This document shows, one piece after another, positions 47,537 through 50,622 of a DNA stretch of 64,000 bases. Location: IMG/VR virus record IMGVR_UViG_3300037455_001096. One strand, 5' to 3'. The position numbers and the translations under genes were made by a program. The notes below the pieces were generated by a model. That model was not told where the DNA came from. It ran no database searches and was given only the letters and a program-made list of their open reading frames with translations. Positions within the stretch are counted from its first letter, which is position 1. Each line of letters starts with the position of its first letter. This stretch comes from a virus. Lineage: Duplodnaviria > Heunggongvirae > Uroviricota > Caudoviricetes.

Positions 47537-48226
47537 CTATTTTCGGAAAAAATCAATATAGTGTTTGCTGTGCATAAGTCTTGTTACGGCATTGTCCACT
47601 TGACGTACAAGGGTTTTTAGGTTGTTCAGATATGAATCGAACCTTTCGCTATTTATCACCGATATATTATTCACATTCGGAAGCATTGTCGGCAGTTCCA
47701 AAAAACAAGACATTGTGTCATAGTTTATAATTTCCGATTGACTGAATTCTTTGCAGAAAGAAGCATAGTTTTTTATGTTTATTATTTTTGGATACAAATC
47801 ATCCACAAATTCTTCAAACATATCGGTAAGGTATTCGCCGAGTGATTTTCCGTTTGGTGTTATATGAAAGAATAATATAGTATGCAACACCCAATTTATT
47901 TTGTGGTTGTTGTATTTGTGATATGACACAAGACTTGTGTCTTCTGTGGGATATGTTCCTTTATCTGAATAGAAATCTTCGTCTGACGGGGAGAAATGGG
48001 AAGCGTCACAATAAAGATAGTCTATATTATCCTTATGGTACAATTCTATATTTTCCGTGGTCTTTATTTTTTTCAGAAAGTTGTTTATCTTGTCTGACGC
48101 GAGATTGACAACCGCTTGTCTGTATTCCGCAGTGTCGAATTTTGAAACGGCGTTTGACAGACCCGTTTTTGTCATAGGCTGTATGTTCAGTTTCTCATTG
48201 AACTGTTTTATGTTCAGTATTTTCAT
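47537..48226 (-). CDS. leader-family protein (229 aa)
   Basis: Start set at the internal ATG (MKILNIKQFNEKLNIQPMTK). The ATGA overlap with the upstream stop suggests coupling. Confidence 0.6.
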   Translation of the reverse strand: MKILNIKQFNEKLNIQPMTKTGLSNAVSKFDTAEYRQAVVNLASDKINNFLKKIKTTENIELYHKDNIDYLYCDASHFSPSDEDFYSDKGTYPTEDTSLVSYHKYNNHKINWVLHTILFFHITPNGKSLGEYLTDMFEEFVDDLYPKIINIKNYASFCKEFSQSEIINYDTMSCFLELPTMLPNVNNISVINSERFDSYLNNLKTLVRQVDNAVTRLMHSKHYIDFFRK

Positions 48227-50622
48227 AACGCTTTTTTTGTTGTGAGATGTTTCGGTAAACTGCAAGTCGCTTTTGGCGGCAGGAAATCCAACGATTTCAG
48301 ATTAAAGCATCCGCTGCAATACAATTTCCCCGCGAAATCCTGCGGTACGCCTTCCAATGATTCAAGGTTGTCGCAGAATTCACAGTTTATTTCATCGCCC
48401 ACTGTTTGCGACATACCAACAAGATTTTTAAGTTTTTCGCAGTTTTCGCAGTGAAATCCGCCGCCAACTGACAACGGGGAATGCTCCAACGACACCAAGG
48501 ATTCATTATCGTTGCACATAAACGAACCCCCGACTTCCTGCGGTGCGCCTTCCAATGATTCAAGACCGCTGCACAAACCGCAATCAAACTTCCAACCTAT
48601 CTCATTCGGGACACCTTTTAGGTTTTTGAGTTTGTGGCAGAAATTGCATACAAAGTCACCGCCTATATATGACGGTGCGCCTTCCAATGATTCGAGGTTG
48701 TCGCATCCGCTGATTGAGAAATTCCCGCCAACGTGTTTTGGAGCGTATTCGAGGTTTTTCAGATATGGCATATTGTTGCAAAGCATTTCGCCATCAACGC
48801 GATATGGTGCGCCTTTCAATGAATACAAATCTGTTGATGAACAATCGAAATTGCCTTTGATGTAACCGAATTTGATTGGGAGCATCTCGTTTATTATATC
48901 AAAATTATAAACTTTGACATCGTATTCGCAGTCGTAGAGTCCAGTTGTCTCGTTGTATGTGAGAAAATTTCTTTTGATGAATTTTTCTATTTTATTGTTG
49001 ATTCTGTTGCTTCTTCCGATTGCCTCGTTTCTTGAAAGGGGTTGGATGTTCAGTTTCTCGTTTGCTGTCACAGTCTTTTGCGTTTTGCTTGACTTAAGAT
49101 GGTCGGGAAGAATTTTTTTCCTTGCCCCCTTTGGCAGGTATTCCAATGATTTCAAATTGTCGCAGCCGCCGCAGGAAAAATATCCGTTGAAATCCTGCGG
49201 TGCGCCTTCAAGTGATTCGAGGTTTTTGCATTGATAGCAAATGATTGTTTCTTTAACGTCTTGCGTTATTCCGATAAGGTTTTTTAGCGAATCGCAATCT
49301 GTGCAATAATATTTTGCCACAGACAGCGGAGAATGCTCCAATGTTTTCAGATTGACCGATGCGGCACAACTGAACGTTTCCACTCGTTTCGGTGCGCCTT
49401 CAAGCGATTCAAGGTTTTCCGAATCACCGCATCTGAAATTGCCGCCTATAATCTGCGGTGCGCCGATGAGGTTTTTCAGCGAGTCGCATCCACGGCAGTC
49501 GAAGTTTCCGTACAGATTTTTCGGAGAACCGACCAATGATTTGAGTGACGTGCAATACGAACAGTCTATGCTTGTGACCTCATCCGCCATACCCTCCAAT
49601 GATTGCAGGTTGATGCAGACTGAACAGTCGAGAGTGCCTTCTATTTTACTTGGGGAGTCTTTGAGGTCGGTTATGCTATCGCAATACGAACATCTGAATG
49701 CTCCTCTGATTGTCTGTGTGACACCGTGCAGTGATTTAAGATTGCCGCAATGCGAGCAGTCGAAATCCCTGCCCAATGTTTTCGGTGAATATTCGAGCGT
49801 TTCAATATTGCAATACCTGCATTCAAAGTTACCGCCAACGTGAAGCGGTGCGCCTTTCAATGATTTGAGTCTGTCGCATCCAGAACATTCAAAGTTCCCG
49901 TTCACCGCAATCGGCGCGTTTTCAAGCGAAACAAGCGAATCGCATCCGCTGCATATGAAGTCGCCGTCAACAATGCCGAGCCGCACTGGTATCTTGCCCC
50001 GCAGCAGGTCGGCGTTGTTCAATCTCATATTTGAATGGCAATCATATTGCTTTGCTGTTTCGTTATACACAAGGCAGAATTTCTCTATGAATTTCGCAGC
50101 CTTTTCTTCATTGGCTTTTTTGTATGCGTCTATTGACACGGGTTTTATATTCAGTTTCTCTGATATGTGCTTTGACTCGTTTTCCTTTTTTAGTTTGTTG
50201 AAATCCGCCAAACGGTATATGACCAACAACTTATCGTCCTTTATCACAAAAACGTTGTTCTTTTTGAAGAATCCCCTTGGCGTGTTCGCCGAATGGAATT
50301 CCATAGCGTATTTGAAAAGATTGGCGGAGAATATTATGATGTGGAACGACATATTGATATAATATATGCCTTTCTTAAATTCATCGTATGTACGGTACAC
50401 ACCGTATAGCGAGACATCGGGGGCATTCGGTATGGGTTGTTCACTGACAGCGTATTCACCCTCGAAAAAAATGTTCGGTGCGCAAAGCCATCCTTTATAG
50501 ACATAGAATGTCGGTATTCTTTTGTATAGGTTTCCTTGTTCAAGTTCCGACTTTTGTATCGGCTTGATATTCAGTTTCTCGGAAACAAAATTTTTAAATT
50601 TTAATATGTTTGTCATACTCAT
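48223..50622 (-). CDS. triple-module fusion of the leader/LRR family (799 aa)
   Basis: Three leader copies lie inside one ORF: N-terminal VSEKLNIKPIQK, internal ISEKLNIKPVSIDAYKK and ANEKLNIQPLSRNEA. Each is followed by a YDC..D linker, a FG(I/Y)(V/I)xGxFxC element and Cys-rich 22-aa repeats such as GCDSLKSLEGAPxxVGGNFxC. Confidence 0.75.
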   Translation of the reverse strand: MSMTNILKFKNFVSEKLNIKPIQKSELEQGNLYKRIPTFYVYKGWLCAPNIFFEGEYAVSEQPIPNAPDVSLYGVYRTYDEFKKGIYYINMSFHIIIFSANLFKYAMEFHSANTPRGFFKKNNVFVIKDDKLLVIYRLADFNKLKKENESKHISEKLNIKPVSIDAYKKANEEKAAKFIEKFCLVYNETAKQYDCHSNMRLNNADLLRGKIPVRLGIVDGDFICSGCDSLVSLENAPIAVNGNFECSGCDRLKSLKGAPLHVGGNFECRYCNIETLEYSPKTLGRDFDCSHCGNLKSLHGVTQTIRGAFRCSYCDSITDLKDSPSKIEGTLDCSVCINLQSLEGMADEVTSIDCSYCTSLKSLVGSPKNLYGNFDCRGCDSLKNLIGAPQIIGGNFRCGDSENLESLEGAPKRVETFSCAASVNLKTLEHSPLSVAKYYCTDCDSLKNLIGITQDVKETIICYQCKNLESLEGAPQDFNGYFSCGGCDNLKSLEYLPKGARKKILPDHLKSSKTQKTVTANEKLNIQPLSRNEAIGRSNRINNKIEKFIKRNFLTYNETTGLYDCEYDVKVYNFDIINEMLPIKFGYIKGNFDCSSTDLYSLKGAPYRVDGEMLCNNMPYLKNLEYAPKHVGGNFSISGCDNLESLEGAPSYIGGDFVCNFCHKLKNLKGVPNEIGWKFDCGLCSGLESLEGAPQEVGGSFMCNDNESLVSLEHSPLSVGGGFHCENCEKLKNLVGMSQTVGDEINCEFCDNLESLEGVPQDFAGKLYCSGCFNLKSLDFLPPKATCSLPKHLTTKKAL

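Follow-up and report, generated by a model that had tools for sequence, protein, structure and literature searches.

Background

The internal proteins of T-even phages are injected anti-defence proteins that have nothing in common except their leader (PMC12373910, PMC3012670). In the capsid-targeting sequence (CTS) of T4, targeting depends on residues 4 and 7, and processing on residues 8 and 10 (PMC9026906). Both ipII and ipIII start with MKTYQEFIAE followed by Ala, and the propeptide of ipI ends in ITE, again followed by Ala (read from NC_000866). In SPN3US and other phiKZ-like phages, ejection and inner-body proteins are processed at A-x-E by the gp245/gp175 protease (PMC10052503).

The window analysed here is a stretch of 64,000 nucleotides (IMGVR_UViG_3300037455_001096). 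To judge from its sequence, it is part of an uncultured huge phage belonging to a clade with T4-type head genes. It contains a gene of 799 codons and a series of further genes (Table 1) which specify proteins with a common leader peptide.

Table 1. Leader genes of the window and subdivision of the 799-aa ORF
Feature	Position	Strand	Remarks
799-aa ORF	48223..50622	-	799 open codons; three leader-plus-body modules
Leader 1	50542..50616	-	Full N-terminal form, MTNILKFKNFVSE-KLNIKPIQKSEL
Module 1 body	50173..50541	-	aa 28-150; alpha/beta domain, family of small genes 50783 and 51241
Internal leader 2	50122..50166	-	aa 153-167; ISE-KLNIKPVSIDAY; without MKIL..[YF] half
Module 2 body	49093..50121	-	Cap helix, then about 13 Cys-rich 22-residue LRR units
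Internal leader 3	49021..49065	-	aa 520-534; ANE-KLNIQPLSRNEA; crossover point of the L006 variant
Module 3 body	48226..49020	-	Cap helix, then about nine Cys-rich LRR units
Downstream leader gene	47537..48226	-	Unrelated body; start overlaps stop of 799-aa ORF (ATGA)
Stand-alone module 1-family gene	50783..51244	-	N-terminal leader; missing from L001-L006
Stand-alone module 1-family gene	51241..51717	-	N-terminal leader; in L006, missing from L001-L005
Stand-alone leader-plus-LRR gene	51731..52567	-	Missing from L001-L005; module 1-type cassette instead in L006
732-aa two-module gene	52576..54774	-	PGA_cap, degenerate internal leader, MATCAP-like peptidase
Internal leader of 732-aa gene	53710..53730	-	Degenerate, YIDEKLKLSD
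Two more leader genes	46118..46438 and 46461..47525	-	Unrelated bodies
Second tandem array	34591..39385	-	Six leader genes, mostly LRR type
Lone leader gene	42294..42731	+	
Leader gene amid structural genes	15663..16466	-	Probable start MSNGHKYSVSKGTASQYINE-KLNIHP

Results and discussion

Modular composition of the 799-aa protein

The first-pass annotation had described the 799-aa ORF as an in-frame chain of three family modules with leaders at roughly aa 10, 150 and 520. Motif positions and BLASTP comparisons bear out this composition. The motif E[KR]L[NDK][ILV].[PD] is found at aa 15-21, 155-161 and 522-528, the Glu of the EKLNI.P cores being aa 15, 155 and 522. Translation probably starts at the third codon, ATG at 50616 (MTNILKF...), which was chosen because the orthologue in the related contig L006 begins there.

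As had been proposed for the first body, module 1 (aa 1-140) resembles the products of the small genes 51241 (33% identity, E 5e-21) and 50783 (32%, E 3e-17). Modules 2 (aa 141-510) and 3 (aa 511-799) are 37-46% identical to each other (E 2e-57), and the product of gene 51731..52567 matches both, module 2 with 32% (E 1e-54) and module 3 with 42% identity (E 6e-70). The earlier view of these two bodies as Cys-rich LRR arrays like that gene is thus upheld by BLASTP, and also by the repeat L.SL.GAP..VGG.F.C..C, which recurs in both with a period of 21-22 residues. Module 2 contains 26 Cys residues and module 3 contains 16.

In the AlphaFold2 model, modules 2 and 3 are beta-solenoids with a regular pattern of short beta-strands (pLDDT 95-98 at aa 160-510 and 80-93 at aa 530-795). 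Repeat period and model together agree with what defines LRR proteins, a regular L..L.L repeat of 20-30 residues and a curved beta-solenoid. A Foldseek search of the PDB with the module 2 model returned LRR proteins as all of the best 24 matches, among them RPP1, CroV588, YopM, TLRs and the cysteine-ladder protein InlJ; these matches are weak (E at least 1.7e-3). In Pfam, neither the 799-aa protein nor the product of gene 51731..52567 had a match, so the LRR_4 and DUF285 cut-offs were not reached; paralogues in the window score 22-28 bits against LRR_4, for which the cut-off is 27. Pfam and PHROGs also yielded nothing for the small neighbours of the 799-aa protein. For the module 1 family, the AlphaFold2 model of the gene 51241 product (pLDDT 82) was used in a fold search, and no fold match was obtained.

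The region of leader 2 (about aa 150-160) has a pLDDT of about 40, but all of aa 1-158 is below 50 in the same model; leader 3 (aa 512-529) is likewise below 50. Stop-codon recoding was dismissed, as TAA, TAG and TGA all terminate genes here.

The region is repetitive, and lost stop codons or collapsed paralogues could in principle have produced such an ORF by faulty assembly or sequencing. The chance of this is negligible. An ORF of the same length with 96% identity is present on seven contigs from at least five samples, in ENA and Logan assemblies including the window's own strain, and the substitutions within the 799 codons are mostly synonymous. The dN/dS ratio is 0.20 for the whole ORF and 0.12, 0.25 and 0.14 for modules 1, 2 and 3, respectively, indicating purifying selection.

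The leader peptide and its distribution

N-terminal leaders comprise about 25 residues following the pattern MKIL...[YF][IV]xE-KLNIxPVxKxRL. Numbered from the Glu, the conserved residues are M(-11) I(-9) L(-8) [YF](-3) [IV](-2) E(0) K L [ND] I x P [VI] [ST] K x R L, and the downstream half, KLNIxPVxKxRL, is the best conserved part. Of 89 N-terminal leaders, 69 have a spacing of exactly 11 residues from Met to Glu, which makes the Glu residue 12, and 65 of these 69 have I or V at position -2. In internal copies nothing is retained upstream of position -2, the aromatic residue at -3 included, but [VIL]-x-E and the residues downstream of it persist. Of 14 internal leaders, 12 have I or V at position -2, and of 43, 38 have V, I, L or M there.

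Six-frame translation of the window revealed 18 copies of the motif. In fourteen of them the distance from a start Met is 10-13 residues; a fifteenth, in gene 15663..16466, is close to a probable start. The leader genes are closely packed, stop and start codons of successive genes overlapping as ATGA, and tail-fibre genes (56400..57956) adjoin the arrays. In the 732-aa gene the internal leader is degenerate; the L025 orthologue retains it.

A profile search with the leader detected 173 protein clusters (E<=1e-3) among 1.84 billion representatives, and the matches nearly always begin at residue 1-3. At the DNA level, a 29-nt degenerate version of the motif was searched. It gave 40 stretches in IMG/VR, all on seven contigs, and 15 matches in 596 Gb of bacterial genomes, one of which is a true leader. 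The recurrence of the motif cannot be due to chance. The motif string was found in no paper by literature search.

The bodies behind the leader are diverse. BLAST grouped 109 leader modules into 28 clusters, so that the same leader precedes at least 28 unrelated body families. Pfam assigned leader proteins to DUF285/LRR (DUF285 at 3.8e-158), PGA_cap, MATCAP and other families. Most of the cargo consists of binding-type solenoids (LRR, DUF285, Fib_succ_major), and enzymes are also tagged (PGA_cap, a MATCAP-like peptidase), as is a protein with a weak match to an APOBEC_C domain. Among the fetched members of the leader clusters, at least 33 proteins have two to four leaders; multi-leader fusions are a recurrent architecture.

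Several known elements were considered for the leader and discarded. The peptide as read from the sequence is hydrophilic with neither a hydrophobic stretch nor a lipobox, which rules out a Sec, Tat or lipoprotein signal, and a 2A-like or intein element is excluded by motif mismatch. No HTH family is among the Pfam matches of 93 leader proteins, and for the leader of gene 51241 AlphaFold2 predicts just two short helices (aa 6-14 and aa 21-30) joined by a loop, which speaks against an HTH DNA-binding domain. A single match to the leader regular expression, located in L035, belongs to a true HTH that is unrelated to the leader.

Rearrangements in related phages

The relatives L001 to L005 (92-97% nucleotide identity) carry the 799-aa fusion and lack the three genes 50783..52567. 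In relative L006, gene 50783 is missing and another cassette replaces 51731..52567; in addition, module 3 is exchanged in frame behind leader 3 for the body of the downstream gene 47537..48226. Residues 519-738 of protein P0002 are 75% identical to the protein of that gene. The L006 junctions, known from one contig of 10.6 kb, fall within leader-coding DNA or at its start. A second swap is evident from proteins P0018 and P0142, which have 97% identity in aa 1-176 but no relationship beyond NLNEKL. Two independent pairs of nearly identical proteins thus differ by a module exchanged at the leader. The array is dynamic, as first annotated, and has breakpoints at leaders.

Since breakpoints coincide with leader DNA, it could be suspected that this DNA is a dedicated recombination site, at which a site-specific recombinase reshuffles cassettes in the manner of a shufflon or invertase system. 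The codon for the Lys after the Glu is indeed AAA in all 17 window leaders. The codons for Glu (GAA, GAG), Leu (CTG, CTC, CTT, TTG), Ile and Pro, however, vary freely among synonyms; constraint therefore acts on the peptide and not on the DNA. Neither the invariant core nor the inverted flanking copies of a shufflon are found, and the direct orientation of the array copies would permit deletions only. Moreover, the junction at gene 50783 involves a different microhomology of 8 nt, ATGACAAA, and the L001 deletion occurred at GC(G)ATAC, away from all leaders. A recombination site of this type is very unlikely.

The first-pass annotation had also taken the fusion as recent and as derived from adjacent paralogues. 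Neither point could be sustained. The modules are 30-45% identical to their paralogues at the amino acid level, with only short patches of nucleotide similarity to the neighbours, and the ORF is under purifying selection on seven contigs. Relatives carrying the identical fusion and no separate copies had been named beforehand as an observation that would count against the proposal; at this locus L001 to L005 are literally of this kind, and it is the recency that falls with them, while the dynamism of the array stands.

An essentially accidental joining of neighbours, which would make the internal leaders mere relics, is accordingly hard to reconcile with the data. Leader-to-leader deletions do happen, as in L006, and small deletions could join genes arranged end to end with ATGA overlaps. 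The fusion is, however, common to all sampled relatives, and each module has a low dN/dS. Many independent fusions have produced 43 internal leaders in which the same 15-residue core is kept while the upstream half decays, and this argues for selection, not relics. We regard a recent accident as highly improbable. Because multi-leader ORFs recur across the clade with conserved internal leaders, the 799-aa fusion is, as far as its sequence tells, a selected architecture and a functional gene rather than a transient product.

Head genes of the clade and possible function of the leader

Portal_T4 was detected in three ORFs of the clade (3.3e-64) and Gp23 in two (6.2e-30). Three [IL]-x-E-S sites (INE-S, IKE-S and LNE-S) lie within the first 52 residues of the gp23-like capsid protein L042:1150-2946, and the other 545 residues have none. 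In 200,000 shuffles this count was not reached once, and a second genome shows conservation of the sites. Five leader genes flank the L042 capsid gene; three of these follow it immediately and in its own orientation. A gp21-type protease was not found in about 340 kb of clade DNA by phmmer or by a regular expression for the catalytic motif, nor by Pfam scans of the genes next to those for portal and capsid protein.

Like the internal proteins of T4-type phages, leader proteins are otherwise unrelated and have a short N-terminal peptide in common. At the level of sequence pattern only, this peptide also corresponds to a propeptide of 10-19 residues ending in a gp21-type [LIV]-x-Glu. Leader and T4 CTS match at M, K, [ED], [FY], [IV] and E, about six positions, which is too short for a statistical test of homology. 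The separation of targeting and processing in T4 parallels the difference between N-terminal and internal leaders. The half KLNIxPVxKxRL, lying after the proposed cut, is without T4 counterpart, and the residue following the Glu differs, being Lys in the leaders, Ser at the sites of the capsid protein and Ala in the T4 proteins.

These features suggest that the leader may be a T4-style tag for capsid loading and cutting, and that the 799-aa fusion may be cut into its modules within the head. We hold this to be a serious possibility, though somewhat short of probable. The N-terminal half of the leader would act like the T4 CTS, which is cut after the Glu of MKTYQEFIAE by the gp21 protease, and would load the protein into the prohead core; a prohead protease would then cut after the invariant Glu of each leader. 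The 799-aa ORF, stringing together a small alpha/beta domain and two Cys-rich LRR solenoids as three cargo modules, could thus be loaded once via its N-terminal leader and be separated inside the head. The modules would be ejected along with the DNA, and the LRR modules might then bind host targets. Loss of a stop codon between two cassettes would be cheap under this scheme, and fusions would therefore arise repeatedly and persist. The location of the internal leaders in low-confidence stretches of the AlphaFold2 model speaks for capsid loading and cutting; well over 100 packaged proteins, mostly LRR paralogues, would be an unprecedented number and speak against it.

Phage receptor-binding proteins classically combine a conserved N-terminal anchor with a C-terminal binding domain that varies, and they recombine where the two meet. 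The leader could accordingly be an adaptor for attachment to the virion, and the modules surface adhesins or receptor-binding proteins on the head or on tail fibres, the fusions being uncut and multi-headed. The predominance of binding-type solenoids and the adjacent tail-fibre genes fit such a function, and PAU and PTm5, distant cultured relatives, are described as carrying many fibres. Known anchor domains are, however, far longer than about 25 residues, and the leader is also attached to the enzymes and the APOBEC_C-like protein mentioned above. An adaptor would account neither for the fixed distance of 11 residues between Met and Glu nor for the loss of the N-terminal half in internal copies, and it has no use for the [IL]-x-E-S sites in the capsid propeptide. 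We consider it unlikely.

A function outside the virion appears equally doubtful. The leader might be a helix-loop-helix peptide binding to a phage hub, chaperone or compartment, or a mark for regulated proteolysis, again with multi-leader proteins remaining uncut. This would agree with the helices predicted for the gene 51241 leader, with the number of tagged proteins, which is large for a capsid cargo, and with the best conserved half lying downstream, a part which need not concern cleavage. On the other hand, no partner is named, the exclusion of secretion signals and the lack of an HTH match in Pfam narrow the choice, and the match to the T4 CTS, the internal [VIL]-x-E and the neighbourhood of the capsid gene are left unaccounted for.

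If capsid loading and cutting applies, a wider and more tentative proposal may be made for the clade. One universal tag of 25 residues would load a combinatorial effector library into the capsid, mostly LRR binders specified by single genes or by polyproteins of two to four modules; the head protease would cut them, they would be co-injected with the DNA, and recombination at the tag would rewrite the cargo list. A simple sequence rule would then list the repertoire of injected proteins of an uncultured group of huge phages, and deletion, replacement and in-frame fusion at the leader would be seen to alter this repertoire. The LRR modules would become candidates for binding to host proteins, whether of defence or other, and the T4 capsid-targeting idea, already used for the packaging of foreign proteins, would extend to polyprotein cargo. 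Should the function be another one, the leader would still be an undescribed sorting signal common to well over 100 protein clusters.

Comparison with known systems

Megablast of positions 44000-56000 of the window against GenBank phages gave no match, and the whole 799-aa protein retrieved a single weak LRR match from IMG/VR. The leader was not found at the loci with LRR genes of Lak-A1 and LR756501, the latter having a different N-terminal module.

A close likeness is to IPI, IPII and IPIII of T4 and other T-even phages, in which a short N-terminal peptide alone is common to unrelated proteins. The T4 pattern M-K-...-E-[FY]-[IV]-x-E resembles the leader, and its determinants for targeting and processing are separable (PMC9026906). 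Loci of T-even internal proteins are hypervariable between close relatives, as leader loci are, and gp20 and gp23 genes of T4 type occur in the clade. In contrast to T4, the leader has 25 residues, is found on more than 100 protein clusters, against about ten, and its cargo is mostly LRR solenoids. Internal leaders and polyproteins of two to four modules are not described for T4.

In phiKZ-like giant phages, paralogue families also occur (SPN3US gp53/gp54), and head-internal proteins lose their propeptides by cleavage after Glu, which in some of them takes place at more than one site (PMC10052503). These phages are of a different lineage, their propeptides are long (20-254 residues) without a shared leader, and cassette swapping at the propeptide boundary is not reported.

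Outside head maturation, two systems are comparable with regard to exchange. In polymorphic toxins of the CDI and Rhs type, a short conserved motif marks the exchange with stand-alone neighbouring cassettes (PMC3482391). These toxins are bacterial, are secreted and come with immunity genes; their motif is preceded by a long delivery domain, and one module takes the place of another without being joined to it. The promoter-terminator cassettes (PeSLs) of T4-type genomes are short conserved recombination points flanking accessory genes (PMC2839356, PMC4122927). PeSLs, however, are intergenic regulatory DNA, whereas the leader is coding and its conservation is that of a peptide.

Finally, viral polyproteins and gp22, the T4 scaffold protein, are single products with repeated sites for a viral protease between their functional units, as the fusions described here would be if they are cut at their leaders. 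Unlike in polyproteins and gp22, the units in these phages are in addition specified by genes of their own within one genome.

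Three leader-headed modules in one gene

The EKLNI.P core of the leader, a peptide of about 25 residues, is found three times in the 799-aa protein (aa 15-21, 155-161, and 522-528), as the first-pass annotation had claimed. Its view that the first body resembles the neighbouring genes 50783 and 51241, and the other two the Cys-rich LRR gene 51731..52567, also held. In BLASTP comparisons, aa 1-140 showed 33% identity to the product of gene 51241 (E 5e-21) and 32% to that of 50783 (E 3e-17), and the LRR segments showed 32% (E 1e-54) and 42% (E 6e-70) identity to gene 51731..52567. 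Residues 141-510 and 511-799 are 37-46% identical to each other, and their LRR bodies contain 26 and 16 cysteines set in a 21-22-residue repeat.

These LRR bodies were modelled by AlphaFold2 as solenoids with pLDDT values of 95-98 (aa 160-510) and 80-93 (aa 530-795). Leader 3 (aa 512-529) remained below 50, as did module 1 with leader 2 (aa 1-158), the alignment behind the model being dominated by LRRs. The best 24 Foldseek matches of the LRR model in the PDB were without exception LRR proteins, YopM and InlJ (a cysteine-ladder protein) among them, but with weak E values, none below 1.7e-3. The module 1 family is small, with four database relatives, and is predicted to form an alpha/beta domain (pLDDT 82); a search for structural neighbours of this predicted fold gave nothing significant. 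A member with 40% identity to gene 51241 also forms the second module of a different protein, P0132.

Age and reality of the fusion

A protein of 799 aa with 96% identity to that of the window is encoded on seven contigs from at least five samples (ENA and Logan assemblies). Comparison of the window with the close relative L001 yielded a dS of 0.093 and a dN/dS of 0.20 for the whole ORF, and dN/dS values of 0.12, 0.25, and 0.14 for the successive modules. The ORF is therefore real and under selection in all three parts, and an origin by misassembly is contradicted. The same data contradict the first-pass proposal of a recent fusion of adjacent paralogues, here taken as accidental, as do the divergence of the modules in BLASTP and the recurrence of internal leaders in other proteins. 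At the nucleotide level, likeness of the modules to paralogues is limited to short patches; they are old paralogues, not recent copies. In five close-relative contigs, L001-L005, all three stand-alone genes (50783..52567) are absent; located at the junction are a GC(G)ATAC microhomology and a leftover from a module 1-type gene, namely its 3' end (AYISIKA plus stop codon). At this locus, these relatives literally carry the same fusion without separate copies, the very outcome that the first-pass annotation had named as refuting its proposal; it refutes the recency of the fusion and leaves the dynamism of the array unaffected.

Rearrangements at leaders

That the array is dynamic was supported by the gene losses in L001-L005, by three differences in L006, and by a swap between two other proteins. 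L006, a further close relative, is 95-97% identical to the window across most of the region (88% over the stretch 47537-46118) and shows three departures from it. Gene 50783 has been lost at a ATGACAAA microhomology formed by the first codons of two leaders, and a module 1-type cassette replaces LRR gene 51731, starting at its start codon. In the third departure, module 3 is missing, and the resulting 738-aa protein (P0002) consists of module 1, module 2, leader 3, and the body of gene 47537 in frame. The crossover falls within GARAAACTGAACATMCARCC; this junction is represented by one contig only, and the shared repeat is just about 20 nt. Independently, the proteins P0018 and P0142 are 97% identical at aa 1-176 and unrelated right after an internal NLNEKL. 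In these sequences, leaders are the seams of the array. A role of leader DNA as a dedicated recombination site is argued against by synonymous variation of its codons (GAA/GAG; CTG/CTC/CTT/TTG; all four Pro codons); selection therefore operates at the peptide level.

A 511-aa SPFH/flotillin gene (44495..46030, plus strand) is intact in the window and L006; L001-L005 have lost about 1.33 kb of the gene (window 44387..45717) and retain a 187-aa Flot fragment. TnpB/IS605 OrfB genes are inserted beside arrays in close relatives (L001, 6338-7534 and 19102-20358), with none at the corresponding window site, 54774..54874. Five TnpB-like ORFs were seen in the IMG/VR loci.

Leader genes and leader anatomy

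The window contains 18 copies of the motif, 14 of them 10-13 residues past the start Met and a fifteenth near the probable start of gene 15663..16466. Three have a clearly internal position; the 799-aa ORF holds two of these, and the third is a degenerate copy in the 732-aa gene (YIDEKLKLSD, 53710..53730), which has lost the Pro and lies between the PGA_cap and MATCAP-like domains. This layout is kept in L025 and L001. Stop-codon recoding is not involved, since TAA, TAG, and TGA all terminate genes in the window. In the second array (34591..39385), several LRR genes share a C-terminal tail, KP[SD]W[IV][KG]G.., right before the next start, and intergenic spacers measure about 5-15 nt.

Leader genes and associated features
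Feature	Coordinates	Strand	Remarks
799-codon ORF	48223..50622	minus	uninterrupted reading frame
732-aa two-module gene	52576..54774	minus	PGA_cap aa 24-265, MATCAP-like metallopeptidase aa 506-612
Leader-gene array	34591..39385	minus	
Leader-gene array	46118..54774		
Single leader genes	42294 and 15663		
gp23-like major capsid protein	L042:1150-2946; L034:4449-4991		IMG/VR contigs of clade

Counted from the invariant Glu (position 0), Met is located exactly at -11 in 69 of 89 N-terminal leaders. Conserved positions are M-11, I-9, L-8, [YF]-3, [IV]-2, E0, K1, L2, [ND]3, I4, P6, [VI]7, [ST]8, K9, R11, and L12. Internal leaders (14 from loci, 43 from the census of multi-leader proteins) have wholly lost -11 to -3 and retain the entire 0 to +12 block, with an aliphatic residue at -2 (12/14 and 38/43, respectively) and mostly N or S at -1. 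The MKIL start and the aromatic residue at -3 are restricted to true N-termini, and the triplet [VIL]-x-E is retained at junctions. All 17 window leaders use AAA for the Lys that directly follows the invariant Glu, other leader lysines being encoded about equally by AAA and AAG; this bias may reflect a nucleotide-level constraint.

Spread of the leader

A profile of 17 window leaders matched 173 clusters among 1.84 billion representative proteins (E<=1e-3), nearly always beginning at residue 1-3. The census covered P0001 and 36 fetched proteins in which the profile matched more than one stretch; two leaders were present in 27, three in five, and four in one, usually 140-170 residues apart. In-frame multi-module proteins are therefore a standard architecture of the clade. 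The window and fetched loci contain 109 leader-delimited modules falling into 28 unrelated clusters, the biggest being the LRR/DUF285 type (66 modules).

Searches with a 29-nt degenerate DNA pattern of the leader revealed 40 stretches in IMG/VR, all confined to seven contigs of up to 413 kb; one of these, represented by L035, harbors an unrelated HTH gene, not a leader. Of the 15 matches in 596 Gb of bacterial genomes, 14 were to unrelated proteins, and the remaining one, from a MAG contig of 1.3 kb, is a true leader. About half of the matches (8) were to NuoE of Chitinophagaceae and related genomes (L050-L063), in which YIGEKLNIKPGETT resembles the leader core by chance. By its distribution, the leader is a clade-wide tag. 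Another huge phage, LR756501.1 (L008), has a tandem LRR array (16989..24506) with a different common N-terminal module (MIKKF...PSGEVL.I), and unrelated neighbour genes there begin with M..K..F[IL]NE[NG], a possible further [FY]-[IL]-x-E leader.

The window derives from a huge phage with tail-fibre genes. The best relatives of its 1245-aa protein are found in LR756500 (462 kb, 37% identity), Lak megaphages, PAU, and PTm5. An adenylosuccinate-synthetase-like gene (32097..33233, plus strand) matches a PHROG annotated as PurZ-type (E 1.4e-40), and 8373..9374 (minus strand) specifies a nucleoside 2-deoxyribosyltransferase-like plus metallophosphatase gene; the PurZ-type-like and deoxyribosyltransferase-like genes hint at modified DNA bases. 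In L021 and L031, IMG/VR contigs, the clade's own GmrSD_N-domain proteins and an EcoRI-type methylase adjoin the T4-type portal gene.

Proposed capsid loading and relation to T4

As a short pattern, the N-terminal half of the leader matches the T4 capsid-targeting sequence (CTS). In the T4 genome (NC_000866), MKTYQEFIAE↓A opens ipII and ipIII, and ITE↓A marks the end of the ipI propeptide. Residues 4 and 7 of the CTS serve targeting and residues 8 and 10 processing, and gp21 cleaves after [LI]-x-E (PMC9026906). The CTS is the sole common part of T-even internal proteins, which are injected and act against host defence (PMC3012670, PMC12373910). Portal and capsid genes of T4 type are present in the clade, the capsid gene being flanked by five leader genes. 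Three candidate sites, INE↓S, IKE↓S, and LNE↓S, lie in the first 52 residues of the gp23-like capsid protein, which has [IL]-x-E-S nowhere else; this count was matched by none of 200,000 shuffles, and the sites are kept in a second genome.

The likeness to the CTS, the retained [VIL]-x-E, the capsid-protein sites, and the T4-type head genes suggest a scheme in which a protein would enter the prohead core by means of its N-terminal leader, cleavage by the head protease after the Glu of every leader would separate the modules of a fusion, and the mature modules would be delivered together with the DNA. A head protease gene was not found in the roughly 340 kb of clade DNA searched, and the best-conserved leader segment, KLNIxPVxKxRL, falls after the proposed cut. 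Rival readings are that the leader anchors adhesin modules to the virion surface, or that it is a non-virion binding or sorting tag and the multidomain proteins stay uncut.

No paper describing the leader motif was found in the literature searched. The nearest known concept is that of the T4 CTS and the hyperplastic internal-protein loci, which are well known; kinship with it rests on the putative packaging and cleavage steps. What is new is the number of clusters (173), a leader that differs from the CTS and is longer, a cargo dominated by LRR modules, and the conservation of internal leaders within polyproteins.
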